DNA of 64,000 nt from an uncultured Caldisericota bacterium (lineage in GTDB: Bacteria; Caldisericota; Caldisericia; UBA6126): positions 3,561 through 67,560 of the forward strand of contig CAZBOU010000008.1 in assembly GCA_964493625.1 (NCBI GenBank), given 5' to 3'. Made by a program: the position numbers and the translations under genes. A model generated the notes under the pieces. The model searched no databases, was not told the origin of the DNA, and worked only from the letters and a program-made list of their open reading frames with translations. Below are positions 15,285 through 38,900 of the stretch, piece by piece (position 1 is the stretch's first letter; the number at the start of each line of letters is the position of its first letter).

Positions 15285-15304
15285 TCAAGAACGAAAAATA
15301 AAAA

Positions 15305-15335: not shown

Positions 15336-15342
15336 AGACAAC

Positions 15343-16315: not shown

Positions 16316-16374
16316 GGCTATTTCGGTATTTCTTTTAGTTAGAAGAACTCCTGATTTGTCGAAAGGTGGCAAAA

Positions 16375-19300
16375 ATGAAAAAATTACTACATATACTTTG
16401 TGCAATTTTCGTTTCTTTCACGATGTTTCATGTGGGGTTGATGCAATCACCAACCACGCAAGCAAATACAAACGTAAAGGATGCAATTTTTGCGGCCTTA
16501 CAATGGGTCCCTGTTGGGACTAGTCGTGATGGCACACAATTGCGCAATAGTGCATTGTTTCCATGGCAAAGAGGAAGTGAAGATTTATGGGGAAATCGTC
16601 AGTATCTAATGCCCTCTGCAGGAGCACCTAGGCCTGCCACCTCGGCAACAAAGTCAACCCCAGTGTACTATACAGAAATCTATTTTGATGTGATTGCTGC
16701 TGGTGGAAGATCCACAGAAGCAAATCATTACTATGTTGTCATGGATGATTCTCAACAGATATGGTTGGATCAAGATGGACGGTTTCAAGATGCTAGACAA
16801 AGTGATCAACCTACAACCAACTGCAGAACTTCTTCCGGTAGAGTTGACCCCAGCTCTGCAAACAACACACTTGGACCGTATCGCGTTGGAGATTATCTTC
16901 ATATAGAAAACAATAAAGGGTATTTATTTACTCCTTCGGGAGCCATAGAACCTATTGAATATAGCAACACAGATTATTCGGGAAGAGTTTTTCAAATTGG
17001 TCAAGCTCTTTTGGGTAACGAAGAAAACCACCCTGTTTTGTTGGTGTCGGAAGTGTTGCAAGCTTCTTGCGATACCTATACGTATAATATCTCTGTGGAA
17101 AGTGACCTTTGGATGGGGACAAATCCAGCTGTGACATCGGCACGATTGTTTTCTCATAGTGGCGATGTACCAGAAGTAGCTCAATTGATTCAAAAAAGCA
17201 CTGTTCTTGATCCATCTGGCAGGGAATTTTTCGCTCCTGCAACAACATTTCATAATATTCGATTGAAATACCGTGAATACATTGGCGTTGAAATCTGGAA
17301 GGATAACGGCGTAAATGTGAATGTATTTGGCGGAAATACTCGCTCCAATAATTTATCCGACGACTACAAGGCAGGGGAAACGTGCGAAGAATTTCTTGGC
17401 ATGAAGCAAGGTTCTTCCGATACAGATGCCTATTTACCGCTACTCCCTATTCCAGTAACCGATCGTTTTTATTCTTCTACTAGCTCTAGTCGCTATGGCT
17501 GCCAAGGTCCAATATATCGTGATTTTGATGATTCCCGAACGGTTAGCCCAGGGGATTTACGAATCACTTCGATCCATGTGAATATGGGCGAAACATTGAT
17601 TGATTATGCTGCAGGTACCACTGTAGCTGAAGGGGATTCAGATGTTGGATTTCCTCTACAAGACTTCATTGTAGAAGATTATTATGATCAGAATGAGAAT
17701 GGGGAATTTGATTCTCAAGACTTTATCTATAGAGATGTCGATGGTAATGATAGAGTTTCGAGTGGAGATATACGTGTAACACAAGTGTCGTATCGAGGAA
17801 CAACATACGACTGCGGTAGTACCGTACAAATAGGAGATGTTTGGTTGTTTGAAAACCCTGTAACAGGGATTACGATGGGGAAAAATGGCAACTTCCGTAG
17901 CATGGACATGGAAGTTATTCCCGGAGAAATCGACTTAAATGTCCGTGTAACACCTGCTTTTCGAGTGGAACAAACGTCTACTGTGACGGTAGCCATTCAA
18001 CCGCCACTAGAAGCAAATGAAAAAGCCGTTATTTTGATTCGATCTGTTGACGGGGGAGACTCAATTCGAGAGGTAAATGCAGGAGTCCGAGAGTATACTT
18101 TTACCTATACCCCCTGGGAAGGGACTTGTAGCCCTTTAGGGAAGCAAGTGCCAATTACTATCGAGTTATACCGCGGTCAAAATTTTACAGATGTGAATCA
18201 GGGACCAAAGGATGGGAATTACGGCTATTGGAAGGTAGACACTCCAAGGGCTGTGCAGTTCCTTGAAAACAAGTATGATTGCCGCATGTTTGATTCAATA
18301 TCGGTGCTTCCAGAATTAATAGAATTTCGCACGAACATTTCTTGTTTAAGCAATATCTCTTTTCGATATCCGAACTTAGTTTTAAAAATGTTTGATGCCG
18401 ATAACAAATCTGACGTGAATGATCCGAATGGAATGGCTATTTCCTCCACAGCGAGTCGAAACATTCTTGCAAATTACAATGCTACAGGATCGGGTATTCG
18501 ATATATGTTTACAGCTATTGATGGCATGAGTAATAAGTACATTGTTCAGGTGAATAGTGACAATACCTATTTGTTGTGGAAGTGGATAGACAATCCCTCG
18601 CCTACACCTGGAAAAGGGTATTACGGTGCTTTGGACTTTGAAGATGAAGTGTCAGGACCTTACGATTCTGCCAATGGACAAGCTCTTTATGGAGGTTCTT
18701 TAGAAGATGTCGACTGTTCAGAAGATAAAATTGAATGTAGAACTTGTGAGTTATCAGGACTTCCTCCTCTAGGAAAAATCACCAAAGGAGATACTTTCGG
18801 TATCTTTGACGGTACTTTAGGGGAAGTTTTAAATGACGGAGTCTGGGCTTTTGTCACTCCATACGGGAAAGGCTTGATAGGCAACGATGGTGGAGAATTT
18901 CCTGTGTGCTTATGGCCTCGAGAAAACAACAATGACGTGTCTGTTCGTGTATTCACAACGCATGCAATGTACGATTACAATTCGACCATTTCTCATCCTC
19001 CTTACTTTGTAACAGGAGGAGGAGATGGAATTGACTATTGCGGGATTGCTTTGCTAGGATGGAAGAGTTCTGACCCCAATCCACCCCCTGATCCAGATCC
19101 TCCAAGTCCTAAGCCACCAGATGATGGAGGTAGAAATGATGGCATTGCATTTTCTGAATTCGTCGCCATTGATCATTCATTGCAGTATTCTGAATTTCGT
19201 TATTCTTCTTCTATTCAACCCGATTACGATCCTGTACTGCAGCATATGATCCGAGATTTTCGATCCTATCCTGGTGGGCAAACCCACATGGGCCGATCTG

Positions 19301-22300
19301 GCCCTATCCTTCGAGAGGGTAGAAACGCTTGTCCTGCCAATTGGGAAAACCAATTTGTGAAGCTTGGTACAGAATTTTTCCCCATGACAGATTATGGGAT
19401 TTATTTCGTACTGCGTGATTCGCATGACGGAAGCCTTCTTTCCTTTGAATCATCGAATCGAAATCACCGCATTACTCAAATTGAGATCAAAGGACCCTTT
19501 TTAACTCCTTATTTCCCCTTGAGCAATGTTCGATATGGTGGAAGCAGTAATGTACCCCTTACCTACAATTGGAGTGGTGAAGTTATCATTGATAGCTCCA
19601 ACTACAAAGAATATGAGTTAACTGGAGCAGATTGGACTCGAACTACCAATCCAGGCCTTCGAGAAAGTGTTCGCTACGGACGTGCAAACAGTGTTTTAGA
19701 ATATTCACGAAGATTGAATTATACAGGTATACCAAAGGTCATCGTTATAGATGAGCTCATTCCTGTACAATATGGGAAAATATCTATTCGTGTTCATTTG
19801 GCCGATGGACGCATTGGAGACTATTATGACTGCTGCGATGTTCCCATGGAAGGAATCCCGGTGCATGCTCTTGAAATAGGAGACTATGCAGGAGGCATTG
19901 AGTATGGCAAAGACTGCGAGTTTACTGCAACAATCAAAGAGCACTCCTCTATGCAAAGTGTACGCCAAGTTAATGATGCTGTTGTATTTATTTGGCAAGA
20001 CCGAGGTGTAAAAACTCGATACAATCAAGAAACCTTAGAAGGAGCTGGAGATGGATGGGTAACGATGGCCCCAGAGTCTTCTGAGAATTCTGGGTATTCC
20101 ACAGCGTACTCTTCTTCTGATGATCTGAACGATGACGGCAAGATCTCTTTCAATGATTTTGAGACCGAAATTGTTGGAAGTTATGATCTTTCTACCAATA
20201 CTTGGGCCGGAGGAATGATTGATGCAAGGACATTCCAAAGAAATCAAGGAAAGTACAAGTTTGTTCTATCTGAGAAGAATAGATGTATTATTGATACGGT
20301 AGGAATGGATTTTAATAAAAATGGAGTTATTGAAGACCACGAAATCCTTCCTGTATACATCACTGCCTATAAATATGGAGATGACAACAACAGCCGAGGA
20401 TTTGGCCCTTTGTACCCTAATCCTATGAATCACAAGTACTATTCACATGCTGTATATCTATCGGGACAAAACATTGCACCAGTAGGATACAGCACTGGAC
20501 CACAAAAATCGTATGAGATTGATCTTTCTCCCTCTATTTTAACTGCAGGGGTTTCACCTGAAAGCGCTTTTCAAGGTCAACCATTCACGGTTACTGTAAA
20601 AAAATCGGATGGATCCCCAGTGGACTTAACAGACAACGGTTCTTTGAGTACAGAAGAAGTGGCTGCATTGTTCTTTGACGATACTCCCTTCAATGTACCG
20701 GACTACTATTGGGTTCGCACCAATTTGCAAAATACATCTACTGATGCTGCAAACAATAGCGATTTGTTCAACAAAAAAATCATTCAATATGATTTTTCAG
20801 GAGCCAAAAAGGGTGTCTACATCTTCAAAAATTTTGTAGCCAATGATGCTGGGTCTTTCAAATTAAGAGTTATGAATAAAAGACGTAGTGATTTTGGCTC
20901 GGTGGATGTAAAGGTAGCCTTGCCTACTGTCGACTATATTGTTTCTCCGTCAGCACCAGAAGGACTCATCCCCGGAGAATTATATTCTGTTACAGCTACT
21001 ATAAAAGATGCTCTTGGCAATACGATTCGTGGAGCAGACGTTCACTATTTACCCTTTTCCGGATCCATAAATGAGCACTATGATCCTGTTTTTCTAGGGA
21101 TCGATCAAGACAATTCATCTAGAAAATGGGCGTCTAACTCTATGGCTTACAACATGTCCATTGACCTTGCTAAACGTGATCGAAATCAAGCAGGGTGGTT
21201 TGGTCCCGGAGCTATCTATAATAGCGCACATGATGGCTTGGTCCATATTCTTGACCGCAACAATGATAATATCGTAAACCATCAAGACAGTTTGTTGGAC
21301 GTGAACGGTCAAATGAAATTTGTTATACCTGCCTGTGGCAACGTTTTTTATGGAGGTTTTGTAGGATGCAATCAGCTATTAAAACAAGCTGGAGTGAGTG
21401 ATGTTGCTGGCGGCCAACCAGAAGACCATGGCGGAAGCCTATCAAGGCGATACAGGCCTGACGGAACATTTCATATGGATTGGTTTGCTTTTAGTCAAGA
21501 TAAGGTTGTGGGCAAAGCACTAGAAATTTCTGCTTATGATCAAAACAAAGAACCCCTTTCTACGGTGGGATTTGATCTAGGCAACTACGACCTTATTTCA
21601 GGAGCAAAAAACAACGTATTATTGAAGATAAAAGAAGCTGGTTCTGGACTAAAAGGACTTCGCTTTTACGAAAATAATCAAAGAATTGCTCAAGTAGATA
21701 TACAATCCACCGAGGATTTTATTGAAGTTGAACTGCAACCATCGAATCCCGGTGAAAGTACTATTGTAGTTCGTGCTGTATATCAGTTTGACACGATGGA
21801 TACTCCTTTTGAACAAACCTGCATGTCATTTGATGTTATTTCCGGGCTGAGTGTTTCGATTGTAGAAGGAGAATTCCTCTATTCTACAGAGCGATCAAAA
21901 GTTGTATTGAAAGTAAATCAAGCGTATAGTGATTCCTTAAAGGATACTCTTCTTGGCTTGAAAGGGCCTGGAGTAGAAGAATGGGAGCCTATTGACTCCA
22001 ATGGAACTTCACTGTTCTATTTCACTCCTCCCTACCCTGGTACTATTCAAATTTTGATTAAGGGTTCTCAAGTATTAACTCATGCACCTACGATTACAGT
22101 TTTTGATTCGCAACAACCACCCTATTTGCTAATCAAGGAATACCCAAGCCTTACTAGGAAGAGCACAATTACTCTTCATGGAGAAACACAAATAGGCTGT
22201 AGCGTGTTTTTCGACGAAAATGAAATAGACGTGTCTTCTTCTGGTACGTTCTCGATTCCCATTGAGCTGGAAGAAGGGAAAAATGAATTTCTTGTTCGTG

Positions 22301-22983
22301 CTTTTAACCCAAAAGGAGTAAAAGCAGAAGAAAAAATCGTGATCTGGAAACGCACAAAGGGTCCTGATATTGAAGTAGATGCATTTCCCGAAACACCCCC
22401 AGAAAAGTTGGAATTGATGGTAACTGGAACCGTAACTCCCCCCGAAGCAGAAGTTATTGTGAATGGCTACGAAGCAATAGTAGAAAGTGATGGAACATTC
22501 TCTTGCACAATACCCATCCAAACCGGTGAAAATGAAATTTATATCAAAGCCGTAGACAGTATTGGAAATACTTCAGAAATGACCCTTACGTATACTTTTA
22601 AAGAGACGACCGTCATTGTTTTAACGATTGGTAGCAAGGCAATGATGATTGATGGAAAAAGCCAAGAAATGGATGTGGCCCCCTTTATTCGTAATGGCCG
22701 CACGATGGTCCCCATACGAGCAATCGCAGAAGCTTTTGGCGCAGAGGTAGAATGGAAACCTTCTACCGAAACCGTAGAAATACGGTTAGGAGACTTGTTC
22801 ATTTCCATGCAAATTGGGAATCCAGTAGCGATGATAGGCAAGAAGGTTACTTCTTTAGACAGTCCGCCCGTTATTGAAAATGGTCGTACGTTTGTACCCT
22901 TACGTTTCATTGCAGAAAGTTTCGGAGCAGAAGTTGAGTGGGTTGCTGAAACAAGAACCATCATTATTCATTACAATAGGTAG
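16375..22983 (+). CDS. 2202-aa secreted surface protein of unknown function with Ig-like + CuAO-N-like C-terminal cassette
   Basis: AAAGGTGG RBS and ATG 16375 give signal peptide MKKLLHILCAIFVSFTMFHVGLMQSPTTQA. It contains duplicated YRD-D...VS-GD-R-T modules, several EF-hand-like loops and a Pro-rich linker SSDPNPPPDPDPPSPKPPDD. Two Ig-like modules and two copper-amine-oxidase-N-like repeats follow (22610-22980: APFIRNGRTMVPIRAIAEAFGAEVEW / PPVIENGRTFVPLRFIAESFGAEVEW). Confidence 0.85.
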   Translation: MKKLLHILCAIFVSFTMFHVGLMQSPTTQANTNVKDAIFAALQWVPVGTSRDGTQLRNSALFPWQRGSEDLWGNRQYLMPSAGAPRPATSATKSTPVYYTEIYFDVIAAGGRSTEANHYYVVMDDSQQIWLDQDGRFQDARQSDQPTTNCRTSSGRVDPSSANNTLGPYRVGDYLHIENNKGYLFTPSGAIEPIEYSNTDYSGRVFQIGQALLGNEENHPVLLVSEVLQASCDTYTYNISVESDLWMGTNPAVTSARLFSHSGDVPEVAQLIQKSTVLDPSGREFFAPATTFHNIRLKYREYIGVEIWKDNGVNVNVFGGNTRSNNLSDDYKAGETCEEFLGMKQGSSDTDAYLPLLPIPVTDRFYSSTSSSRYGCQGPIYRDFDDSRTVSPGDLRITSIHVNMGETLIDYAAGTTVAEGDSDVGFPLQDFIVEDYYDQNENGEFDSQDFIYRDVDGNDRVSSGDIRVTQVSYRGTTYDCGSTVQIGDVWLFENPVTGITMGKNGNFRSMDMEVIPGEIDLNVRVTPAFRVEQTSTVTVAIQPPLEANEKAVILIRSVDGGDSIREVNAGVREYTFTYTPWEGTCSPLGKQVPITIELYRGQNFTDVNQGPKDGNYGYWKVDTPRAVQFLENKYDCRMFDSISVLPELIEFRTNISCLSNISFRYPNLVLKMFDADNKSDVNDPNGMAISSTASRNILANYNATGSGIRYMFTAIDGMSNKYIVQVNSDNTYLLWKWIDNPSPTPGKGYYGALDFEDEVSGPYDSANGQALYGGSLEDVDCSEDKIECRTCELSGLPPLGKITKGDTFGIFDGTLGEVLNDGVWAFVTPYGKGLIGNDGGEFPVCLWPRENNNDVSVRVFTTHAMYDYNSTISHPPYFVTGGGDGIDYCGIALLGWKSSDPNPPPDPDPPSPKPPDDGGRNDGIAFSEFVAIDHSLQYSEFRYSSSIQPDYDPVLQHMIRDFRSYPGGQTHMGRSGPILREGRNACPANWENQFVKLGTEFFPMTDYGIYFVLRDSHDGSLLSFESSNRNHRITQIEIKGPFLTPYFPLSNVRYGGSSNVPLTYNWSGEVIIDSSNYKEYELTGADWTRTTNPGLRESVRYGRANSVLEYSRRLNYTGIPKVIVIDELIPVQYGKISIRVHLADGRIGDYYDCCDVPMEGIPVHALEIGDYAGGIEYGKDCEFTATIKEHSSMQSVRQVNDAVVFIWQDRGVKTRYNQETLEGAGDGWVTMAPESSENSGYSTAYSSSDDLNDDGKISFNDFETEIVGSYDLSTNTWAGGMIDARTFQRNQGKYKFVLSEKNRCIIDTVGMDFNKNGVIEDHEILPVYITAYKYGDDNNSRGFGPLYPNPMNHKYYSHAVYLSGQNIAPVGYSTGPQKSYEIDLSPSILTAGVSPESAFQGQPFTVTVKKSDGSPVDLTDNGSLSTEEVAALFFDDTPFNVPDYYWVRTNLQNTSTDAANNSDLFNKKIIQYDFSGAKKGVYIFKNFVANDAGSFKLRVMNKRRSDFGSVDVKVALPTVDYIVSPSAPEGLIPGELYSVTATIKDALGNTIRGADVHYLPFSGSINEHYDPVFLGIDQDNSSRKWASNSMAYNMSIDLAKRDRNQAGWFGPGAIYNSAHDGLVHILDRNNDNIVNHQDSLLDVNGQMKFVIPACGNVFYGGFVGCNQLLKQAGVSDVAGGQPEDHGGSLSRRYRPDGTFHMDWFAFSQDKVVGKALEISAYDQNKEPLSTVGFDLGNYDLISGAKNNVLLKIKEAGSGLKGLRFYENNQRIAQVDIQSTEDFIEVELQPSNPGESTIVVRAVYQFDTMDTPFEQTCMSFDVISGLSVSIVEGEFLYSTERSKVVLKVNQAYSDSLKDTLLGLKGPGVEEWEPIDSNGTSLFYFTPPYPGTIQILIKGSQVLTHAPTITVFDSQQPPYLLIKEYPSLTRKSTITLHGETQIGCSVFFDENEIDVSSSGTFSIPIELEEGKNEFLVRAFNPKGVKAEEKIVIWKRTKGPDIEVDAFPETPPEKLELMVTGTVTPPEAEVIVNGYEAIVESDGTFSCTIPIQTGENEIYIKAVDSIGNTSEMTLTYTFKETTVIVLTIGSKAMMIDGKSQEMDVAPFIRNGRTMVPIRAIAEAFGAEVEWKPSTETVEIRLGDLFISMQIGNPVAMIGKKVTSLDSPPVIENGRTFVPLRFIAESFGAEVEWVAETRTIIIHYNR

Positions 22984-23095: not shown

Positions 23096-26000
23096 TTACA
23101 AACGCTCCCCAAAGTTATACGATAGTATGATTAGGTCAATACCATCCACTTTTCCGTCATCGTTAAAATCGCACCTGGCATCGTAGTTTGCATCTTCTTT
23201 GTTTGTGCCAAAGGCAGCTGCAAATAGTGTTAGGTCGTGAATATCTACAACTCCATCTCCATTCACATCTCCGGCTAGATAGTTTGTTACAAGGACATCA
23301 ACACCAGAACCAATCAAGGGGTACTCTTCTAACGCCTCAGTTTTGGCAGATGCTTTTTGAATATTCAAAGTAGAAGTGCCTTTGTTGATCCCAATAAAGG
23401 ACAACGTAATCAGCATTCCTGTACCTTGTAAAGAAAAGCCAGTGTTCATCATTATTTTGATCACAACTTTGCCATTGTCTTTGTCAATTTCTTGCAACAA
23501 AGTATGCGCATCGGCTGTATTTTGAAGAAGCATTGAAGATGCTTTTACATCAAGACATTCTACCAAAACAGGATCGTATTGAATTTCAAATTCGATATAA
23601 GATAGATTTTTTGCGTCTTTTAATTGAATATCAATAGGGGTTGGTTTTTTAATCTTAATCTGCGGATATATGGGGTGAAAATGCAACGAGGCGTATCCTT
23701 CTTGAATCGATAGGACAGAAAGTTTGAATTGTGATGTTCTTGTTTTTCCTCCTCCAATACCCTGGATGCTTATGATGTGCTCTTGACTTGGTAGAGATGG
23801 GCTTGTATGGAAAGTAATGGTGACAGGTTTTCCAAAATCCTTTTTTTCAATGATAGATGGTTCAATAGAATGCGTGATACCCTCCGGTACGTTTCCGACC
23901 GTTAAGGTTACAGGGGCTGTCCATTTTAAACTAAAACTAGGATTGAATGTCATCTCGACAGAAGTACCTGCTGTTGCGTGCAAGGTAAAATTTGGTTCAA
24001 GGTTCAAAGAAAAATCACCATCGGCTAGTATTATTTCAAGAGTAACAGAGATTCTTTTTGTGGTTTTATTCGCTTTTCCCAGTACAATAAATTTTAATTC
24101 TGTAGGGGTCATAGTTTGTGTTGTTTGGATATGAAGAACAGATTTTTGTCCTTCGATAATCATTTGTTTCGAAAATGAAAACTGTAGATTTGATGGAAGC
24201 TGATCAACAGATAGATCTACATTTTCACTGAATCCATCAAATCCAGAAAAAGTGATTTCATAATCTGCTGATTCACCTGCATACACTTGCTGGTAGGTAG
24301 GGGAAACCTTAAGAGCATAATCACCCTGCATTGTTTCGTATACAGTGATATGGTATACCAATTCAGCATGTTTGCCACCACCTTGGCCAAGGATTATCAA
24401 CTCAAACTCTCCGGGTTCCACAATAGGACTAAAATGCATGCTTGCAGTAGTTGTACCTGGACAGGGTGCAATAGGGGGGTTAAAAGTGACTTCTACACCT
24501 TCGGGTGGTGTTCCTTTGAGGCCCATGGTAACAGGGGCATTAAAGCCTGCCGTTCTAGAAAGAGAAATATCAGAACGAACCGTTGTTCCAGCATTTACCT
24601 CAAATTCTGTGTTAATGGAAGAAAGAGAAAATTCTCCAGGAGCAATGTTTTGAACACGCAGTTGAATGCGAGTTGTTTTCTTTATCGTTCCACTAAACGC
24701 TATTACAAGAAGGCTATGGCTACCAGTAGGAGTTTCCGAGGTGGTTTGAATTTTAAGAGTTGTTTCTCCTGGGGCAGTATTTAACTGTGAAGGAGAGAAT
24801 TCATAATGTGTTCCTGCTGGCACATTTTCGAGCTGAAATTCCACTGGTTTTTTCAAGGGAATATCATTGATGACATTGATTTTTATGTCTACACTACCAC
24901 CTTGAAAAAGTGTGGTTGACTGTGTATCTGGGATCAATGTAAAACCGACACTCGAGGAGAAGCAATACAATTTACCAGAGTTGGTTCCAACGGCAACTAC
25001 CCCTCTACCCACTGCAGGGCTACTTTGTATAGGAGCATCCAAAGTTTTTTCCCAGACCAATCTTCCTGCTTCGTCAAGCATGGTTAGTTTTTTGTCCAAA
25101 CCGGCTACTAAAATTTTATCTCCTGCAATAACAGGGTTTGTTGTAACAGCTCCTCCGCCTACAGAGTAGGACCATTTTTCTTCTTTTGTTTCTGTATCAA
25201 TTTTACGAAGCTCGGCCATTTTTAAATTTTGATTCTTTTTTACCCCAATAAAGTAAATGTGCTTTTCATCTTCATCTAGAGCGGGAGTATTGGGCACTTC
25301 GTCGTAGGTTAAAATTTGCCATTTCATTGTCATGGAAGGATTCACACGATAGAAAAATAAGTTCTCACCACCTCCACCAATGTAGATGCCATCTTTACCA
25401 ATCGTTGGAGAGGATTTAAAGCTGGCACGAAAACCGTTAAATTTTCCAAAAGGCAAACCATTTACAGACGAGAGAGAGTACATGTAGTTGTCATATGTAG
25501 AAACATATACACGGTTTTTGTAATAGGCTGGAGAGGTGTATATGGGGGCATCATATTGATTCATCCAACGTTGTTCTCCACCTTCAATAGACAAGGCGTA
25601 AAACTCTCCTTTTTCAGTACCAAAATAGACTTTATCATCACCTATACAAGCTGTAGACCGGATACTTGATCCTACATTTCGGTACCATATCGGTCTGCCT
25701 GTGTTTCTGTTAAAGCAGAAGAAGATTCCATCCAGTGTTCCAACAAACAGTTTTTCTTCATGAATTCTAGGGGAACATGTCCATGGAGGTGGATCGTCCT
25801 CCTCCTCTTCCCCGATAGGTGGTAGGATGCGATTGGATTGACCCAAATAGTAATCCCACAATTTTTCTCCCGTAGTTCGGTCTATGGCGTATAGCTTCGT
25901 AGAGTGTCGGCCATCTGGCAAAGCTTTTTCTCCTACAAAATAAATCACGTTGCCAATGATGGCGGGTGTGGATCGAATGGCATCGCTGTCAGATTGGTAC

Positions 26001-27916
26001 ATGTAACGATCTTCCAGTTTACTGCTCACGCTTTCCTCTGTATAGTTTCGCAATGTGTTTGTGTTTCCAAAACCATTCCAGTCGAAGCGTTTTGTTCCTT
26101 TCACTTTGATTGTAAATCTTTCCATGACAGATTTACCGCCACCCTTTGCTTCCACAGCAAAAGAGTAAGTCTCGGGATCGACCGTTACATCTACGACAAT
26201 AATCAATTGACTTGTTCCTGGAACTCGCAGTGAGGGAGAGGAAAACTTCGTACTAAACCCGGGATTGGTAGATTTCATACTTAAATTAACAGCTCCATAA
26301 AACCCATCTGGAGAACTTACATCAAGATTGAAGACAGCAGCATTGCCAGCGTCAATCTCAATACTAGGTGGTTTGATGTTCAGGGTAAAGGTGCCTTCTT
26401 CAATTTCCAAAACTTCAACACTAAGAGAAACCTTTCTTGTTCGACCAAGAGTCTCTCCAAATATCTCAATAAAATAGGTTCCTGGTTTTGTTTCTTTGTT
26501 CACAATAAGACGGAGGTTCGCGGTTGCATTGCTATCTGACATTTTGACTATGTTTGGAGTAACAATCGTTTCAATTCCCAAAGGAGTTTTTCCGATACGC
26601 AGAAAAACATTTTGAGAAAAGGAAGAGGTGGCACTGATTTGAATTTCAATATTTCGTTCTTCTCCTTGATACATCGAGACATTTGCAGGAGATAAGGAAA
26701 GTCCAAAATCTATATTGTCTGCAAAACAAACACATGTACTGGAAAAGGCTAAAATAATCTTATTTTTCGTAATAATGGGAGAGGTGTTGATTTCATTTCC
26801 TAGAAGAGTTGAGAATACTTCTTTGCCTGTTTCGGTATCCAGTGCATAGAATTTTCCATCTCCTCCTCCAAATACGACGTATTCGCCCGTAACAGCAGGA
26901 GAACTGACTACTCTACCCGGAACTGGAAACTTCCACTTTGTTTTTCCGTCTGTACGACGAATGGCTAGCATTTTTCCATCTTCGTCGCCAACAAAGAGTG
27001 TATTTTGTGTTACTGCAGGAGTGGAAACAAAGTTACCGATTTGTCCCGTACGCCAAATGATTTCACCTGTGTAGGCATTGATAGCGAATATTTCTCCTTG
27101 TCCACTAGCAGATCTAGTGGAGACGTATAGCACTCCATCAAGATAAACAGGAGAGGCCTTGCATTCATCATTTGTCCCAATAGGTAATTGGATACCGTTT
27201 CGATCAAAAAGAGGCTTTAAATCACTGTAATCATAGGCATAAAGACGGCCACCTGATGTTACTGCAAATACTCTGCCAGCTCCAATAATGGGAGAAGAGA
27301 TGACACTTCCGTTTAAAGGAATTCTTTCCAGTTCACTACCGGCTGCATTTAAAACATACAGAAATTCCGTAGAGGTACCAAAAAAAACTTTGTCTCCATA
27401 GACCAAACAAGAACTGGATGTGATTTGACCGTAGGCTACAAACTTCCACAGTTCTGTTCCGTCATCACGTAGGCAGTACATATAAGAAGGAGTATCGGAC
27501 GATCCACCCGTAGAAAAAAACAATTTTCCATTGCTATATGTTGGAGCTCCATACGGAAGTGGGTAGTTTAAAAAACGTTCTTCCGTTTCCCAAATCTTTT
27601 CTCCTTCAGCTGTATCAATTGCATATACTTTTCGATTGTCAGCCACAATATAGGCAATGTTGTTTTGAACGATAGGAGAGGAAGAAATGGAGCTTCCTGT
27701 TTGGAAGCGCCACTGTTCAAGCAATCCTTCTACCTGAATGAGTTCAGAAGAAACCCCAGTACGTGATTCGTTTTGGTGGAATGTTGGCCAATCGCTTCCT
27801 TCTTGAGCATACACTGAGGAAATAGAGCGATTCCATGGAATAACAAGGCTAGAGATTACGATACATAAACAGAGAAGTCCAGACATTGTATTTCGAGCAT
27901 ATTGGTGGATATTCAT
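23096..27916 (-). CDS. 1606-aa secreted protein: two PQQ/BamB-like beta-propellers, beta-sandwich modules, cohesin-like domain and dockerin
   Basis: Signal-anchor MSGLLCLCIVISSLVIPW...VYAQEG. Propeller blades include KVYAIDTAEGEKIWET, GEIFAINAYTGEIIWRT, GKFYALDTETGKEVF, TKLYAIDRTTGEKLWDY and GEFYALSIEGGEQRW. The cohesin-like module and dockerin are listed as separate features below. Confidence 0.85.
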   Translation of the reverse strand: MNIHQYARNTMSGLLCLCIVISSLVIPWNRSISSVYAQEGSDWPTFHQNESRTGVSSELIQVEGLLEQWRFQTGSSISSSPIVQNNIAYIVADNRKVYAIDTAEGEKIWETEERFLNYPLPYGAPTYSNGKLFFSTGGSSDTPSYMYCLRDDGTELWKFVAYGQITSSSCLVYGDKVFFGTSTEFLYVLNAAGSELERIPLNGSVISSPIIGAGRVFAVTSGGRLYAYDYSDLKPLFDRNGIQLPIGTNDECKASPVYLDGVLYVSTRSASGQGEIFAINAYTGEIIWRTGQIGNFVSTPAVTQNTLFVGDEDGKMLAIRRTDGKTKWKFPVPGRVVSSPAVTGEYVVFGGGDGKFYALDTETGKEVFSTLLGNEINTSPIITKNKIILAFSSTCVCFADNIDFGLSLSPANVSMYQGEERNIEIQISATSSFSQNVFLRIGKTPLGIETIVTPNIVKMSDSNATANLRLIVNKETKPGTYFIEIFGETLGRTRKVSLSVEVLEIEEGTFTLNIKPPSIEIDAGNAAVFNLDVSSPDGFYGAVNLSMKSTNPGFSTKFSSPSLRVPGTSQLIIVVDVTVDPETYSFAVEAKGGGKSVMERFTIKVKGTKRFDWNGFGNTNTLRNYTEESVSSKLEDRYMYQSDSDAIRSTPAIIGNVIYFVGEKALPDGRHSTKLYAIDRTTGEKLWDYYLGQSNRILPPIGEEEEDDPPPWTCSPRIHEEKLFVGTLDGIFFCFNRNTGRPIWYRNVGSSIRSTACIGDDKVYFGTEKGEFYALSIEGGEQRWMNQYDAPIYTSPAYYKNRVYVSTYDNYMYSLSSVNGLPFGKFNGFRASFKSSPTIGKDGIYIGGGGENLFFYRVNPSMTMKWQILTYDEVPNTPALDEDEKHIYFIGVKKNQNLKMAELRKIDTETKEEKWSYSVGGGAVTTNPVIAGDKILVAGLDKKLTMLDEAGRLVWEKTLDAPIQSSPAVGRGVVAVGTNSGKLYCFSSSVGFTLIPDTQSTTLFQGGSVDIKINVINDIPLKKPVEFQLENVPAGTHYEFSPSQLNTAPGETTLKIQTTSETPTGSHSLLVIAFSGTIKKTTRIQLRVQNIAPGEFSLSSINTEFEVNAGTTVRSDISLSRTAGFNAPVTMGLKGTPPEGVEVTFNPPIAPCPGTTTASMHFSPIVEPGEFELIILGQGGGKHAELVYHITVYETMQGDYALKVSPTYQQVYAGESADYEITFSGFDGFSENVDLSVDQLPSNLQFSFSKQMIIEGQKSVLHIQTTQTMTPTELKFIVLGKANKTTKRISVTLEIILADGDFSLNLEPNFTLHATAGTSVEMTFNPSFSLKWTAPVTLTVGNVPEGITHSIEPSIIEKKDFGKPVTITFHTSPSLPSQEHIISIQGIGGGKTRTSQFKLSVLSIQEGYASLHFHPIYPQIKIKKPTPIDIQLKDAKNLSYIEFEIQYDPVLVECLDVKASSMLLQNTADAHTLLQEIDKDNGKVVIKIMMNTGFSLQGTGMLITLSFIGINKGTSTLNIQKASAKTEALEEYPLIGSGVDVLVTNYLAGDVNGDGVVDIHDLTLFAAAFGTNKEDANYDARCDFNDDGKVDGIDLIILSYNFGERL
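23099..23272 (-). other. dockerin module (two EF-hand-like Ca-binding repeats)
   Basis: GDVNGDGVVDIHDLTLFAAAFG ... CDFNDDGKVDGIDLIILSYNFG at the extreme C-terminus. Confidence 0.8.
23273..23692 (-). other. cohesin-like module
   Basis: ASLHFHPIYPQIKIKKPTPIDIQLKDAKNLSYIEFEIQYDPVLVECLDVKASS...GTGMLITLSFIGINKGTSTLNI. The pattern (F-I-YDP--L----V, G-G-L--L-F) is typical of cohesin folds. Confidence 0.55.
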
Positions 27917-27919
27917 ACA

Positions 27920-30900
27920 TTATCCCCTTCCATTAAAAAGATCCATAATCGTATTGAAGCTTTTTTCAAACCAATTTTGGACCATGTTTAAACTGAAAAT
28001 TGATGATTTTTTTGGAAACACAATTTCTATGCTTTGATCTTGTGGATGCCATTCAATCGAAGCATGGAAAGTTTCTGCAATAAATCGTAGTGGAACAACA
28101 GTTCGACCTGGAGGGATGGTGAAAGGTTCAACATCCAGCGTAACTTCCAGTTTGTTGTCAATAAGAGCAGTTTTTTGATGTAGCCAAAGGTCAATTTTTT
28201 TTGTAAATGGTGCAAAAATCTGAATAGAAATCTTTTGTTCGTCTTCGTACCAATCAACATTTGCTCCAAAGCTTTCTGCTATAAAACGCAAAGGAATCAT
28301 AGTACGACCCTTGGTGGTAAAAGGTTTACAATCAATAAGTACAGATTCTTGATTGACAATAGCCTTTTCGTTTCCTATCTGTAACCAGATAAAAACTGGC
28401 TCAAACACTTTCCTTTCAAGGGTATATTCAATGGTTGTTTTGTTTCCTGCCAGATCGACAGCTTCCGCATGTAGAGTATTAGAACCGATATGTAAAGGCA
28501 ATCGATGGGAGAACGATCCATCTGTTCCAATAGGAATAGGTGTATTGTTAATGGTAAGCTTGGCGTTGTATTCAGACGATCCAGATACATCGATAAAATC
28601 TGTGTAGATGATATCAGGAAATGGATCAAATAGGAGTTTGGGGGGTTTTGTGTCAATAGTAAAAACATACGATGCAGGTTCTGGAGTAACGTTGCCAAAA
28701 GAATCTCTGGCTTTTACGCGAAAAATATGCTCTCCATCTTCTGTTATATGGAGTACTTTTGATGTTTCTGCCGAGAAAGGGCTCCATGGTTCAATATTGA
28801 GTTGATAAGAGTAAAACAGATCCTCCGTTTTTGTTTGGATGTCTTCACCAGTCCATCGAAACTGGACCATTTGCTGGTTCGATATTGGATCTGGATGGGA
28901 GACAATTTCAGCTGTAGGAGGATCGCGGTCAGTTTTAAAAACAGTAAACTCCAAAGGAGATGTTTCGACTCGAATTGGATTTAACTTTGCATCCAATAAG
29001 GTTGCATTATCAATATAGATAGATCCAGACCCAATCGATAGTGTTTCTAACTGAAAAGACAGCAATGTTCCTGAGCCAGATACACCTCCATTTTCTTTGC
29101 CTTCTCTTGAAAGCGCAACATGTAAATACGGCACTCCATCCTGTGTGGATTCTTTTTTGATTATGGAGTTGACATGAACGTTGCCAGCTGAAAGAAAACT
29201 CCCTATTTTGCAGGTTTCTTTTTGGATATCTGTGATAGAGGGTGCGAAATATAAATAAAAGGTGACACCAAAAACGTCTGATCCTGTTTCGATGGCAATA
29301 TCTATGGTCGGATGAGAGCCTATTTCAATTTTTGGGTGAGGGGACTGTATGTCAATTTCTTGGGATGAAAAAGAAAGACGTGCAAGGTTTGACGAGTATG
29401 TTTCAAACTCTGTTGGTGAGAAATCTTTCGTAGAAGATGCAACAGAATCAAGTTGACTTAATGCTGCAGATGGTTGCTGATAGAATGGCTGCATAGAAGC
29501 GATAGAAACATCTCGATAGTAGCGAGTGACAATAACAGAAAAAGGTTCACCTCTCAAAGCAGCAGCTTGAGCACCATATTGGGGAAGACCTACGCCATGC
29601 CCCCAACCCTTTCCATACAAGTAAACATGTGATTGTGTTTGGGTATTAGTCAAGTTTGTTCTCATAAGGGGTGGAGGAACAGACTGGCGATTCCCAGAAG
29701 AATCATCAAAAATTCCAAACCAGCTCGATTTCAAATTAAAATAGTATTGAAATTGTAGCCCGGTAATTTGCACTATACCCTTTTCGGTAAATACGTTTAC
29801 AAAGCGGACTCGATGGCTGTTCTCAAATGTTTGTAATTCACATTTTTCAATAGTATTTACGGCAATGTTTTCTTTTTCTTTTAACAAAAGTTGCAATTGT
29901 GAATGGAAATTTTCTTTTGTAAAGTGTTTGTACCATGAATAGTGGGGAGAAATCTCTTCTCCTGGAGAATCTACTGGTTGCAAATAAGGATAAGGAGAAC
30001 TATTCCAAGCGTTGGCGTTACTCTCAGTCATACCTCCACTACATGAATGGAAGGGGCTGGTAATCAGTTGTTGATTCCAGGTAAGAACTAAGTCTTTTGT
30101 CTCTTCTACTGCTTGATTGGTTGATTTAAATTGTCTAGTGCCCAGATATACCTGGCAGTAAGTGTCGTCAGTAACATCGTAGTATGAGGTTGTATTTTTA
30201 CGAGCTGCCTGAGCTCTTTTTAGTGCGAATGTTCGAGCCGTAATAGCCTGTGATTTGAGTGCTTCCATGTGCCAGTTGGCAGAAATTTCAGCGGGAACAA
30301 CCCCTTTTAAGTAGGTTTCCATATCAATGTGATTCACAGCACTTAAGTCTATGTTGTTTGGAGAATGGATCCAAATAGAACCATAGTAAGAATAATTTCC
30401 CACCTGTATTGAACCATCCCTAGATTGAGGAGAGATCTGCAACAAAGTACTAAAAGTACTAGTTTGATCAGAGATTGTTTTTTGTATATAAATCCCTGAG
30501 TTTAAATCAAGTAAACACAGGGGGGTATTTTTTTCAATGGTTACTACCTTCCCGTCGGACATAGAAGATGCCATGGAAGACAAGAGAAAGGAAGCTTCTT
30601 TCTCGGAATAAAAAGGTCCGATTCTAGCAGAGAGTTGTTTTTGATCAAGTGATATATAGAAAGAAAGAGAAGAGGAAGAAAAAAAAGAATGCCGAATGGA
30701 TTGTACGGTTTCAAGAGGATTTTTTGCCAAAGGAAGTTGCACATAGTAAACAGGTGAGGTGGGCCTGCACAAAGATACAATAAAGGGCGATGCTGAAGGG
30801 GAACCAATGGATAACCACGCATCTGAGAATGGATGATAAACAAGTAGGTTGTCAGAAGATTGCAGAGAGATTCTTTGGGAAGAGTGTTTTACACGTACCC

Positions 30901-31015
30901 GAAGAATATATTGGTTTTGATTTTCAATGCCAAGTGTATAATTAGTTTGGAATGGCAACGAAGGCAGGAAAATCATGCAACAAATAAGGATGATAAAACT
31001 CTGTTTCAGCCACAT
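27920..31015 (-). CDS. 1031-aa secreted SpoIID/LytB-domain protein with SPOR-like, cohesin-like, Fn3/Ig-like and CuAO-N-like modules
   Basis: GGGAGGTGG RBS. It has a SPOR-like segment (ARIGPFYSEKEASFLLSSM) and SpoIID motifs (YLKGVVPAEISANWHMEALKSQAITARTFAL, YDVTDDTYCQVYLG, HSCSGGMTESNANAW). A cohesin-like module lies at about 28960-29385 (FGVTFYLYFAPS...GSGTLLSFQLETLSIGSGSIYI), followed by an Ig-like module. Two CuAO-N-like repeats lie at 27923-28400 (KPFTTKGRTMIPLRFIAESFGANVDW / EPFTIPPGRTVVPLRFIAETFHASIEW). Its stop is 3 nt from the start of the PQQ-propeller gene. Confidence 0.85.
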   Translation of the reverse strand: MWLKQSFIILICCMIFLPSLPFQTNYTLGIENQNQYILRVRVKHSSQRISLQSSDNLLVYHPFSDAWLSIGSPSASPFIVSLCRPTSPVYYVQLPLAKNPLETVQSIRHSFFSSSSLSFYISLDQKQLSARIGPFYSEKEASFLLSSMASSMSDGKVVTIEKNTPLCLLDLNSGIYIQKTISDQTSTFSTLLQISPQSRDGSIQVGNYSYYGSIWIHSPNNIDLSAVNHIDMETYLKGVVPAEISANWHMEALKSQAITARTFALKRAQAARKNTTSYYDVTDDTYCQVYLGTRQFKSTNQAVEETKDLVLTWNQQLITSPFHSCSGGMTESNANAWNSSPYPYLQPVDSPGEEISPHYSWYKHFTKENFHSQLQLLLKEKENIAVNTIEKCELQTFENSHRVRFVNVFTEKGIVQITGLQFQYYFNLKSSWFGIFDDSSGNRQSVPPPLMRTNLTNTQTQSHVYLYGKGWGHGVGLPQYGAQAAALRGEPFSVIVTRYYRDVSIASMQPFYQQPSAALSQLDSVASSTKDFSPTEFETYSSNLARLSFSSQEIDIQSPHPKIEIGSHPTIDIAIETGSDVFGVTFYLYFAPSITDIQKETCKIGSFLSAGNVHVNSIIKKESTQDGVPYLHVALSREGKENGGVSGSGTLLSFQLETLSIGSGSIYIDNATLLDAKLNPIRVETSPLEFTVFKTDRDPPTAEIVSHPDPISNQQMVQFRWTGEDIQTKTEDLFYSYQLNIEPWSPFSAETSKVLHITEDGEHIFRVKARDSFGNVTPEPASYVFTIDTKPPKLLFDPFPDIIYTDFIDVSGSSEYNAKLTINNTPIPIGTDGSFSHRLPLHIGSNTLHAEAVDLAGNKTTIEYTLERKVFEPVFIWLQIGNEKAIVNQESVLIDCKPFTTKGRTMIPLRFIAESFGANVDWYEDEQKISIQIFAPFTKKIDLWLHQKTALIDNKLEVTLDVEPFTIPPGRTVVPLRFIAETFHASIEWHPQDQSIEIVFPKKSSIFSLNMVQNWFEKSFNTIMDLFNGRG

Positions 31016-35025: not shown

Positions 35026-35892
35026 ATGAAGAATATGAAACGTTTCTTAGTTGTTTTTTTGGGAGTTTTAATGGGTGTAACCGCATTGTTTTCAGTGGGA
35101 GGGTTGCAAGCAAAAGAAAGCGCTGTTGTTCAAAGTACTTTCTTTAAACCCTTGTTAGTTTTATCAACAGCAAACCAAAATAGTGTATTTTTTTCGTTTA
35201 CAAATACTGCCAAAAAACCTAGCAAATTGTATGCTAAACTTACTCATGAGTATACTAAACATGACGATTCTGAATGGTTGGTTCAGTTTTGTTACTCCAA
35301 TATCTGTTTTCTTGATGAAGGAGAATCCCCTAATACCGTTGACCCAGGGAAAAAAGAAGAAATGCATGTTCAGATGTCTCCTTATGTTGCAAAAGTTGGC
35401 GATACTATTAAATGTACACTTGAAGTTTGGCCTGTTGCAGAACCTAAAAATGTAACAAAAGTACTGTTTTATGGTGTGGTTGTAGATGAGAGCAGAGTTG
35501 AACTCCGAATTGATAATACGCAAGCAAAAGTAAATGATAAAGTCCAAACTCTTGATGCAGCCCCTTTTATATTGAATAGTCGTACAGTTGTGCCACTACG
35601 ATTTATCGGCGAAGCATTAGGCGCTGAAATAGGATGGGATAACAACCAAAGAATGGTTAGCTATAAACTTGGCGATGAGATTTTGTATTTCTGGATTGAC
35701 AAAAAAGATGCAAGGGTAGTTATTGGCCCCTATTTTGCCAAGACAATACCACTAGAAGCAGCTCCTGTCATTCGAAATGGAAGATCTTTTGTACCTGTCC
35801 GTGTTGTATCTGAATTGCTAGGTGCAAAAGTTGGTTGGGAAGGTTCTACACGAACCGTTAGTATCGATTTTCCTGCACCCTATGATCATTAG
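35026..35892 (+). CDS. 288-aa secreted protein: small beta-sandwich + two CuAO-N-like repeats
   Basis: Signal peptide MKNMKRFLVVFLGVLMGVTALFSVGGLQA. The repeats lie at 35497-35889: APFILNSRTVVPLRFIGEALGAEIGW and APVIRNGRSFVPVRVVSELLGAKVGW. Confidence 0.75.
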   Translation: MKNMKRFLVVFLGVLMGVTALFSVGGLQAKESAVVQSTFFKPLLVLSTANQNSVFFSFTNTAKKPSKLYAKLTHEYTKHDDSEWLVQFCYSNICFLDEGESPNTVDPGKKEEMHVQMSPYVAKVGDTIKCTLEVWPVAEPKNVTKVLFYGVVVDESRVELRIDNTQAKVNDKVQTLDAAPFILNSRTVVPLRFIGEALGAEIGWDNNQRMVSYKLGDEILYFWIDKKDARVVIGPYFAKTIPLEAAPVIRNGRSFVPVRVVSELLGAKVGWEGSTRTVSIDFPAPYDH

Positions 35893-35912
35893 ATTCGTTG
35901 AAGGGGTTTTGT

Positions 35913-38900
35913 ATGATGGTTAAGAAATATATTTCATGGTTTCTCGCAATACTACTACTGCTAGGGTTGATGTCTCCCTTGAATCGACATGTATCTGCTT
36001 CTGAGGTAGAACAAGATAGTAAAATTTCTATTATTGGTGGGGGTATACCGACCGGTATGTTTTTTGCTCCTACATATCTCAACATTCAACAGCAGAGGTT
36101 GTATGTAGCAGATTCCAAAAACAATCGCGTTCAAGCTTTTATTCGGGGTAACGTATTTCAATTAGCTTTTGGTGGATATGGTCAAAACGAAAGAGAGTTT
36201 GATCAACCTGCTGGAATTTGTACAACAGAAGACGAGCTGTATATTGTTGACTCTTTAAACGCTCGTGTTCAAATATTTGACTCCAAGGGAAATTACCGGT
36301 CTCAGTTTGGATCTTTCGGTAGTGAACCGGGAAATTTTAACACTCCTACGGATATTGCCACAGATGGAACTAAACTGTTTGTATTGGATACTGGAAATGC
36401 TCGCGTTCAAATATTTGATCGCACTGGAAAATATCTTTCTTCTTTCGGCTCACAAGGAGTTGAAGATGGGTTTTTTAGTAAACCTTTGGGTATAGAGGTT
36501 GCTAAAGGAAAAATATATGTTTCCGATACAGGCAACAATAGAGTTCAGATTTTTTCTGATGCTGGATCCTTTGTTAGCGTATTTGGATTTAGTGGAACCG
36601 AAGAAAAAGGTTTCCACAAACCTAAAGGTATTACTTTTCATGAAGAAAAAGTGTACATTGTAGACTCCGGCAATAAACGCATCCATGTTTATGACGAAAA
36701 TGGTGTTTACCAATCTGTCGTGGCCGTACCAGAAACGAAAAGTCCTTTTGGTGTTTCCATTTTAGATAACAAGATTTTGGTTTCTGACATTGTTACAAAT
36801 GAAATCTTAACCTATACATTTGATGGAAGGCAAAACGGATTTTTTGGAGAAAAACCTGATTATTCAGGTCGATTTGTAAAGCCCATTGCTGTTTCTGCTA
36901 CTGAAAAAGATATTTATGTACTCGATGCCCACTTGAAAACTGTACAAGTATTCGATGAGCATTTTGAGCCTATTCATCACTTTTCTTTCGAAGAAATGCA
37001 TAAAGCGGATTTATTCAATCCTGTTGACATATCTGTGTATGATGGACATGTTTATATTGTTGATGAAATGAAACCAGCAATTAGTATATTCACTACAGCT
37101 GGAACATTTGTTAGTAATATAGGGTCCTATGGAACAGAACCTGGAACATTTATTTCTCCTCAAGGCATTTGTTTGTATGACGACAAGATTTATCTATCCG
37201 ATGCTGGCAATTCCAGAGTACAAGTTTTGACTCTCCAAGGAGATCCCTTGTTAACTTTTGGTTCTTTTGGTTCTAAAAATAACCAATTTTTTAACATGAA
37301 AGGGATCGCTGTTATTGAAAATTCAATATTTGTTACGGATTCTGGAAATTCTCGCATTACTGTCTATGACCTAGAAGGGAATTATATCACTTCCTATGGT
37401 AAAAAAGGCTTTGAAACTGGCAATTACTTTGGTCCAAACGGAATTCATGTCGACATGTCAGGCAAAGTATATATTGCCGACATGCTAAACAATCGTATTC
37501 AAATATTGAATTCTATTACCGATCAATCCAAGGTATTTGGTCAGTTTGGTTCTATTTTTCAAGATCCAGAAAACTATGCTAAAGGAAAAACCGATTATCG
37601 CTATGACTTGATACCGGGTTATTTTGTTTATCCCACAGATGTAACGGTTTTTCAAAACTATATTGCAGTAGTGGATCCCTATAATGTCCGTGTACAAATG
37701 ATCCCGTTTTCTACTGTTTTTGATAAAAACCCTCTTAGTGTTACCCCTGATTTCTTAGATTTTGGTTCGGTTGGTTCTTCTACCTCTGTTACCCGAACAT
37801 TCATTTTACGTAACACAGGTGGAAACTATATCGAAGGGAATATTACTTGTAACCAAGATTTTGTCACGATTGAACCAACCCATTTTAAAGGATCGTCAGA
37901 AGAGATTTCTTTAACCATAAAGGGTGACTCACTAGAAGCTGGAAAAAAATACGAAGCCAAAGTTACAGTTACTCTTTTGGATGGTCAATCCAGAGAAATT
38001 TCTCTTACATTATCTGCTAGCAGTGAACCAGATTTTTATGCAGAAATTACTCCATTTTTTGTAGCTTCTGCGGAAGAAGAATTGCGCGTTCCCATTAAGG
38101 TATATCCTCAAAATGGATTTGAAGGACTTGTTACATTCTCAGCTATTGAGCTTCCAAAAAACACCCTACCTACATTTGACCCTCCCTCTGTTAACTTACC
38201 TGATACGGATACGACCTATTTAATCTTGAAGTCTTCTTCAGATTATATTGAAGCAGGAGAATACCGAATTGAAGTGCGAGCTGACTCAGCAAAGGGCAAT
38301 AAGTCACATCACTTTAATTCAACGTTTGTTTTTAAACAAAAATTAGACCTTGTACCTCATACCGTTTTGGGTGAGCTTTTTACTGCTACTTGGTGTTTGA
38401 ATTGTGTTTACTCCCACATGGCTATGGATCAACTATACGAAGAGATGGGAAAAGAAACCGTTACCTTTATTGAGTATTATGTCGACTCCACAAGTGATCA
38501 TCCTGTGCCTCGTCTTTCATGGATAGAAAGTGAACAACGGATGAAATGGTACATGTCTGACAGAGGATTGCCTACAATTTTCTTTGACGGAACGGATTAC
38601 TTAAAAGGTGTTTCTACTGATAACAATACACCAGAAGCCAAAAGAGCTCGCATGTATGAAGATTATCGAAGAAAAGTCGTTGAGAAATCGAAAGAATCCT
38701 CTGCAGTTACTATTTCAGTACGAAGTATATTCGACTCCAAGCGTCGCATGGGAAAAGTCCATGCTTCGGTAAATGCATTGGACAACCTACCCTATAAGAA
38801 TCCTCATATCTACTTTGCAGTTATTGAAAGCCATATTCCATATAGCGCCGTCAACGGCGATAAGTTCCATCACTTTGTGTTGAGAGATTTTATTACCCCT

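Follow-up and report, generated by a model that had tools for sequence, protein, structure and literature searches.

Within a 64 kb window from the genome of an uncultured Caldisericota bacterium (the whole stretch of DNA analysed here), three genes encode large proteins with cohesin modules, two of which also end in a dockerin (Table 1). A SpoIID/LytB-family protein and a giant β-propeller protein are encoded directly one after the other, the SpoIID gene lying upstream and its stop codon being separated by 3 nt from the propeller start on the same strand, while an S8 subtilase with a PA insert is encoded elsewhere in the window. According to Pfam, the propeller protein comprises PQQ_2/BamB-like and ACSF4-type β-propellers followed by Dockerin_1, and the protease Peptidase_S8, PA and Dockerin_1. 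The SpoIID protein, in which Pfam found no dockerin, runs from a signal or anchor peptide through SpoIID, a cohesin, a Y_Y_Y/Big_13-like immunoglobulin (Ig)-like domain and Glucodextran_B to two Cu_amine_oxidN1 repeats. In all three proteins, the N-terminus starts with a few charged residues and then turns hydrophobic, as in a signal peptide, and the proteins are probably exported. The three genes are as given in an initial annotation of the window, and its module boundaries proved accurate to ~20 nt. Its remark that glycoside hydrolases (GH) and carbohydrate-binding modules (CBM) are absent agrees with the Pfam scan, which found neither in the SpoIID, propeller or protease proteins. An exact database look-up of the propeller protein sequence returned no record, and a promoter and terminator scan of the SpoIID–propeller operon gave signals not above shuffled expectation.

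Table 1. Genes and modules of the three cohesin-bearing proteins (positions are those of the 64 kb window).
Feature	Position	Strand	Description or evidence
Giant propeller protein, gene	23096-27916	-	1606 aa; two PQQ/BamB-like β-propellers, Ig-like domains, C-terminal cohesin-dockerin cassette
Cohesin of propeller protein, aa ~1405-1543	23288-23704	-	Pfam 22.4 bits, hhalign, foreign-sequence hidden Markov model (HMM)
Two-repeat dockerin of propeller protein, aa ~1546-1606	23099-23281	-	Pfam Dockerin_1 35.5 bits
SpoIID/LytB-family protein, gene	27920-31015	-	1031 aa
SpoIID lytic-transglycosylase domain, aa ~223-515	29471-30349	-	Pfam SpoIID E 4.9e-27
Cohesin of SpoIID protein, aa ~552-692	28940-29362	-	Divergent; Pfam misses the module
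Ig-like (Y_Y_Y/Big_13) and Glucodextran_B spacers of SpoIID protein	28412-28918	-	Pfam; present in orthologs too
Two Cu_amine_oxidN1 (PF07833) repeats of SpoIID protein, putative wall-association module	27986-28375	-	Pfam E 1.4e-39, two stretches
S8 subtilase with PA insert, gene	59145-62354	+	1069 aa; C-terminal cohesin-dockerin cassette
Divergent cohesin of protease, aa ~885-1000	61797-62144	+	Pfam 20.0 bits, ortholog profile, predicted fold
Divergent two-repeat dockerin of protease, aa ~1012-1069	62178-62351	+	Pfam Dockerin_1 23.9 bits

The SpoIID domain aligns over its full length with the SpoIID/LytB lytic transglycosylases of known structure (PDB 4RWR, 5I1T and 5TXU; E 2e-31 to 2e-21) and retains their VV..E motif, with the catalytic Glu embedded in GVVPAE as compared to GVVASE in 4RWR. 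By family match and catalytic Glu, it has the features of a SpoIID/LytB lytic transglycosylase. Unlike these enzymes, the protein extends by ~500 further C-terminal residues (cohesin, Ig-like domains and two Cu_amine_oxidN1 repeats) and comes from a phylum not known for sporulation; given this host, the presence of SpoIID does not imply that spores are formed. In public databases, the orthologs that share the cohesin bear only SpoIID/LytB-type names or the name "stage II sporulation protein D", with the cohesin left unannotated. A SPOR-like N-terminal domain, suspected by eye, gave no Pfam match even at E ≤ 10.

Whether the three cohesin-like segments are genuine cohesins is not settled by routine annotation. 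None of them reaches the Pfam gathering score for Cohesin (PF00963; 24.1 bits): for the propeller and protease modules Cohesin is the sole family match, in both cases below this score (Table 1), and the SpoIID module gives no Pfam match even at E ≤ 10. Word-indexed homolog searches returned nothing for the SpoIID module and the protease C-terminus and a single, dockerin-only match for the propeller C-terminus; single-sequence searches of the PDB found dockerins and no cohesin. Compared directly with one another, the three modules are related with weak significance (E 6e-4 and 8e-3 by BLASTP, and E about 0.3 by phmmer inside the window).

More sensitive searches place all three in the cohesin family. 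An exhaustive HMMER search of 1.84 billion representative sequences with the SpoIID module retrieved 108 relatives at E ≤ 1e-3, the best being an ortholog of equal length and 71% identity, and many of them having the module in 2 to 5 tandem copies. In 92 of the 101 relatives scanned, Pfam calls Cohesin at E ≤ 1e-3 (best 1.4e-47), at coordinates that coincide with the matched stretches. A profile built from the SpoIID module and 57 relative segments gave 36 matches in the PDB, all of them cohesins, headed by type II ScaB cohesins (E 3.9e-17) and including the Archaeoglobus fulgidus cohesin 2xdh at 4e-9. An AlphaFold2 model of the module, computed from the same alignment as the profile, reached a predicted local distance difference test (pLDDT) score of 96.4 and a predicted template modelling score (pTM) of 0.88, and its top 50 Foldseek matches in the PDB were likewise all cohesins, with 2xdh the best (E 3e-10, template modelling (TM) scores 0.69/0.77). 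When aligned with the SpoIID-module family by hhalign, the propeller module scored a probability of 97.9% and E 3.3e-13 over 130 columns, and the protease module E 1.4e-4.

The protease module is the weakest and most divergent of the three. Even so, a two-sequence profile of this module and its ortholog reaches bona fide cohesins (best single-domain E 5.8e-11), and the ortholog module, present in two metagenome contigs, scores above the Pfam threshold, with 27.6 bits in L017; a SpoIID-type module from another ortholog cluster (P0054) nearly does so, at 22.8 bits. In the AlphaFold2 model of the protease cohesin–dockerin segment, the cohesin part has a pLDDT of 82–95, and its top 50 Foldseek matches are all cohesins, with E down to 9e-5 and 2xdh again the best, for an alignment that was thin, lacked ortholog rows and, being made of cohesin homologs, favours the cohesin fold. 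As a control, a cohesin HMM made from foreign sequences only was run on the 251 six-frame open reading frames (ORFs) of the window. It picked exactly three places, in the SpoIID (1.6e-35), propeller (8.8e-19) and protease (8.3e-4) proteins, the next best ORF scoring E 1.3; besides these three cohesins and the two dockerins, no further module of either kind was found in the window. By homology, and for the SpoIID and protease modules also by predicted fold, all three segments are genuine but very divergent cohesins. The initial annotation, which had called them cohesin-like, had named failure in cohesin profile searches or an unrelated fold as evidence against them, and neither was seen for any module: transitive homology, the PDB profile search, the predicted folds and the foreign-sequence HMM converge on the same family. 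Since standard annotation misses these cohesins, Pfam-based censuses of non-cellulosomal cohesins will undercount.

Both dockerins, in turn, pass the Pfam gathering score for Dockerin_1 (PF00404; 22.9 bits), that of the protease barely. A dockerin is expected to consist of two ~22-residue repeats, each made of an EF-hand-like Ca loop (D1, N3, D5, G6, D/N9, D12) and a helix. The propeller dockerin agrees with this pattern in full, its Ca loops DVNGDGVVDIHD and DFNDDGKVDGID being canonical with all Ca ligands present, and as a single sequence it matches the PDB dockerin 2y3n_B at E 1e-7. The protease dockerin agrees in part: in its loops DLNGDRVVDRYD and DFNQDHRIQLED, Gly6 is replaced by Arg or His in both and position 9 of loop 2 is Gln. 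None of the four loops of the two proteins has lost Ca ligand 1, 3, 5 or 12. A protease-type dockerin profile matches PDB dockerins at E 6.9e-12, and AlphaFold2 predicts three helices for the protease dockerin (pLDDT 63–80). With Pfam scores above the gathering threshold and matches to PDB dockerins, both hold up as the genuine dockerins they had been taken for. The best-scoring matches are of type II, namely 2y3n_B, 4u3s and 2b59 for the dockerins and 3l8q for the cohesin profile. In addition, protease-type dockerins have a Cys directly before each Ca loop (LCDLNGD and ICDFNQD, and likewise in the L017 ortholog, ~4440-4627), and the propeller type has one before loop 2 only (RCDFNDD); in the protease dockerin, degenerate as it is, a disulfide between the two Cys could act as a staple.

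In the propeller protein and in the protease alike, only ~4 residues lie between the last cohesin strand and the first Ca loop, and the two C-termini align end to end, including a common ...Y(N/D)..CDFN.D... segment. On account of this full-length alignment and short linker, the cohesin–dockerin pair looks like one mobile cassette; in both proteins, its architecture is that of an adaptor (cohesin plus C-terminal dockerin on one polypeptide). In a more distant Caldiserica metagenome-assembled genome (MAG; L006, 2-2891), a fragment with FlgD_ig, cohesin and dockerin precedes an NHL-repeat gene, and its first dockerin repeat, DFNEDGVVDIHD, resembles the propeller type and not the protease type. 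Cassette types may be exchanged between carrier proteins. The short-linker cassette also recurs outside Caldisericota, as four unrelated database proteins among the matches to the SpoIID module (P0015, P0030, P0036 and P0076) have a dockerin that starts within ~10 residues of the last cohesin.

So short a linker would suit a cis arrangement in which the cohesin packs on the adjacent dockerin of the same chain, as an intramolecular clasp or an X-module-like stabilizer, with any partner located elsewhere. The best scores of the dockerins and of the cohesin profile against type II modules (compare type II X-dockerins) point the same way, and intramolecular dockerin clasps are known (PMC3821032). 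However, judging from known complexes, the dockerin probably cannot span the distance to the canonical 8-3-6-5 face of its own cohesin on a linker of four residues, and the two-domain AlphaFold2 model of the protease (pTM 0.64, with the dockerin pLDDT given above) shows no confident rigid packing. We regard a cis unit as improbable.

A genome scan placed the window in the phylum Caldisericota, with the propeller C-terminus at 92% identity to one uncultured Caldisericota MAG and at 75–76% to three further MAGs. A Firmicutes origin, to which SpoIID, CdaA/CdaR and Cu_amine_oxidN1 had seemed to point, was rejected on the strength of these matches. The architecture SpoIID–cohesin–Ig-like–Glucodextran_B–Cu_amine_oxidN1 is common to five 50%-identity clusters (P0002, P0008, P0011, P0032 and P0054), and SpoIID is directly followed by the propeller in every related contig of sufficient length, i.e., in five further Caldisericia contigs plus L002; of these, L001, L019 and L020 break off within the propeller gene and L002 within the SpoIID gene. 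The two genes are 3 nt apart in L001 and L003, 30 nt apart in L018 and overlapping in L019 and L020. Their pairing still holds where the identity of the SpoIID protein to that of the window is down to 33–35% (L018–L020), and in L018 and L019 a whole island of large surface proteins is syntenic at 35% SpoIID identity. The distant L018 propeller still ends in cohesin–dockerin, the entire architecture persists in propeller orthologs of 95%, 85% and 51% identity, and the protease orthologs of L016 and L017 keep both holB upstream and the S8-PA-...-cohesin-dockerin order. Thus far, the cassette is kept in every ortholog seen. One of these contigs, L003 (DAIMET010000016.1), is labelled Calditrichota; as its locus is syntenic with the window and with Caldisericota MAGs, with proteins 67–85% identical to those of the window, this label is probably wrong.

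Within the propeller protein and the protease, the dockerin is the best conserved module. Comparison of the propeller protein with its closest ortholog (L002) gives 95% identity overall, 89% in its own cohesin and 100% in the dockerin; the corresponding values are 85%, 70% and 90% against L003 and 51%, 38% and 66% against L018, and for the protease against L017 they are 35%, 24% and 49%. That dockerin identity exceeds overall identity in both proteins argues for a selected binding function of the dockerins. It also makes it unlikely, and in our estimate very much so, that the modules are vestigial or repurposed, the cohesins acting as spacer β-sandwiches or binding non-dockerin ligands and the dockerins as Ca-binding stabilizers. 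Such decay could be read into the degenerate protease dockerin, with its lost Gly6 and the Gln at position 9 of loop 2, and into the sub-threshold Pfam scores of all three cohesins, but it sits poorly with dockerins that are the best conserved modules in deep comparisons, with Ca ligands 1, 3, 5 and 12 that every loop retains and with a cassette that none of the orthologs seen has lost.

The presence of a cohesin and a dockerin on one polypeptide raises the alternative that each cassette recognizes only its own copies, forming homo-oligomers or chains in which the SpoIID cohesin has no part. For this there is a precedent in Amy4 of Ruminococcus bromii, a protein with GH13, cohesin and dockerin that binds its own and other dockerins and for which head-to-tail multimerization by self-recognition was shown (PMC4611034). 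The cassette travels, moreover, as a unit on two unrelated proteins and in the L006 fragment, and the four unrelated database proteins with closely spaced modules are in keeping with the same idea. Self-association alone, however, leaves unexplained why the SpoIID cohesin is kept in all five ortholog clusters and why the gene pairing is conserved, and within the cassettes the cohesins diverge more quickly than the dockerins (38% vs 66% and 24% vs 49% identity). We consider this alternative unlikely.

The distribution of modules over the three proteins is complementary. The only cohesin protein with Cu_amine_oxidN1, the SpoIID protein, has no dockerin, and both dockerin proteins, the propeller and the protease, are devoid of Cu_amine_oxidN1 and of any other recognizable anchor. 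As a domain, the Cu_amine_oxidN1 pair that the initial annotation had seen on the SpoIID protein is firmly matched by Pfam (Table 1). PF07833 proteins have been found in the surfaceome and among the wall hydrolases of the Gram-positive D. reducens (PMC4137172), and Caldiserica are counted as one of the lineages in which the outer membrane has disappeared (bioRxiv 10.1101/2021.05.31.446380). In the window, three giant neighbour proteins use Cu_amine_oxidN1 directly. They belong to an island of very large secreted proteins at 11103-40676, with counterparts in L018 (1-17710) and L019 (205-16866), in which four proteins (16366-22983, 27920-31015, 35026-35892 and 35898-40676) have tandem Cu_amine_oxidN1 repeats at their C-termini. 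Synteny of the island extends to Caldisericia contigs at ~35–50% protein identity, its part at 11103-22983 falling outside the contig parts compared. The repeats on four island proteins and the synteny of the island suggest Cu_amine_oxidN1 to be the general surface-retention module of this lineage. One of the neighbours, a 2205-aa protein (16366-22983), contains four EF-hand- or dockerin-like Ca-loop motifs, DFDDSRTVSPGD, DVDGNDRVSSGD, DLNDDGKISFND and DFNKNGVIEDHE (aa ~385-470 and ~1250-1330); as dockerins these were rejected, their spacing not being dockerin-like and Pfam calling none.

Our preferred reading is a non-cellulosomal cohesin–dockerin tethering among the SpoIID, propeller and protease proteins, a proposal that we judge to be evenly poised; the specific pairing of the SpoIID cohesin with the propeller dockerin is possible but more tentative. 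In the proposed arrangement, the SpoIID lytic transglycosylase would display its single cohesin while being fixed to the wall at both ends, through the hydrophobic segment at its N-terminus and the tandem Cu_amine_oxidN1 repeats at its C-terminus. To this cohesin, the dockerin of the co-transcribed giant propeller would bind in a Ca-dependent manner, whereby the anchorless propeller would be retained. The propeller's own cohesin could then serve as a second socket, akin to the ScaC adaptor (see below), taking the protease dockerin or another propeller copy, so that binding and proteolytic subunits would be stacked head-to-tail, in short series, on a wall-remodelling enzyme. The idea of SpoIID as a scaffold fits the conserved gene pair, the complementary module distribution and the dockerin conservation.

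Several observations weigh against this arrangement. The protease gene has a housekeeping context and lies 31 kb from the SpoIID–propeller operon. At positions 10/11, which usually govern recognition, the two dockerins are unlike each other (I-H and G-I vs R-Y and L-E), and they may for this reason not share a socket; in that of the protease, Gly6 is gone from both Ca loops, and Pfam does not call the L017 ortholog of this dockerin at E ≤ 0.1. Conservation of the SpoIID cohesin is no higher than that of the whole protein (30–33% vs 33–35% in L018–L020; 71% vs 67% in L003), and Cu_amine_oxidN1 is a putative cell-wall anchor. Finally, with 64 kb of genome in view, cohesin or dockerin partners elsewhere may be the true ones: a multi-cohesin scaffoldin or further dockerin proteins, with the three proteins as peripheral members of a larger system. 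Multi-cohesin proteins are indeed common among the cohesin relatives. Yet in the recovered Caldisericia loci (~120 kb; L001–L006 and L016–L020) no cohesin or dockerin gene was found beyond the orthologs of the three, and we hold outside partners to be a rather unlikely explanation.

Judged by domain content, the three-protein set is not a cellulosome, as it comprises no carbohydrate-active enzyme (CAZyme), no CBM and no multi-cohesin scaffoldin, with one cohesin per protein. We place it among the non-cellulosomal cohesin/dockerin systems (Peer et al. 2009, FEMS Microbiol Lett 291:1, as cited in PMC8542988 and PMC2930009), in which the modules likewise reside on proteins without GH or CBM and some proteins bear both; the non-cellulosomal A. 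fulgidus cohesin 2xdh is also the best structural match of both window models, SpoIID and protease. From the known systems of this kind it differs in its phylum, Caldisericota, and in its carrier proteins. We know of no earlier description of a cohesin on a SpoIID/LytB enzyme. The minimal cohesin–dockerin adaptor layout of the window cassettes is shared with R. flavefaciens ScaC, a stand-alone adaptor scaffoldin of the cellulosome with one cohesin and one dockerin, whose cohesin structure (5lxv) is among the top Foldseek matches of the SpoIID module. Unlike in ScaC, the cassette here is fused to large functional proteins, with a linker of only a few residues.

Among the closest functional precedents is the R. 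bromii amylosome, which also combines one cohesin and a C-terminal dockerin on a catalytic protein with a single-cohesin anchor: Amy4 is tethered by Sca2, which is anchored to the wall, has one cohesin and accepts dockerins of peptidases as well (PMC4611034). In contrast to the amylosome with its amylases, the candidate cargo consists of a protease and a propeller, and in contrast to Sca2, a sortase-attached scaffoldin, the candidate anchor is a SpoIID enzyme with Cu_amine_oxidN1. An S8 peptidase with a C-terminal dockerin occurs, in another uncultured non-Firmicutes lineage, in Ca. Stygibacter (Cloacimonadota), as part of a proposed cellulosome-like surface complex for polymer degradation (PMC8542988). 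There, a multi-cohesin scaffoldin of 3755 aa bears CBMs and a C-terminal domain of the type IX secretion system (T9SS) type (PMC8542988), whereas in the three proteins of the window the cohesins are single, CBMs are absent and the candidate anchor is a SpoIID enzyme. The assembly logic borrowed from cellulosomes, which the initial annotation had put forward, has been described before, in the self-association of Amy4 (PMC4611034) and in S8-dockerin peptidases on non-cellulosomal scaffolds (PMC8542988). What is new is the phylum, the SpoIID enzyme as a cohesin-bearing candidate anchor, the giant propeller as cargo and the fused short-linker cassette; none of the papers searched mentions dockerins together with Caldisericota.

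The modules described here extend cohesin–dockerin pairs to the phylum Caldisericota, of which hardly any member has been cultured, and to carriers unusual for them, i.e., a candidate anchor from the SpoIID family of wall hydrolases, a giant propeller and a subtilase. With three cohesins and two dockerins, this small conserved set is a tractable case for the question of how anchorless proteins are retained on an envelope apparently without an outer membrane. A more far-reaching version, which we consider quite improbable, is that across the class Caldisericia the lytic transglycosylase would be a wall-anchored socket on which the cassette-bearing propeller and protease polymerize head-to-tail into a surface layer or sheath. 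If true, wall remodelling would be physically coupled to the assembly of a surface coat, and cohesin–dockerin pairs would serve envelope architecture, not polymer degradation.

Two further features of the window were observed. Upstream of the protease gene, class A penicillin-binding proteins with transglycosylase and transpeptidase domains are encoded by two neighbouring genes that overlap slightly (52070-57137) and precede tmk, holB and the protease. At the other end of the window, the release factor 2 gene (2793-3900) contains a classic programmed +1 frameshift signal at ~2850-2870, with a Shine–Dalgarno-like AAGGAG followed by CTT TGA C; its ATG is at 2793, and the main frame continues in +1, where the ORF is listed from 2959.

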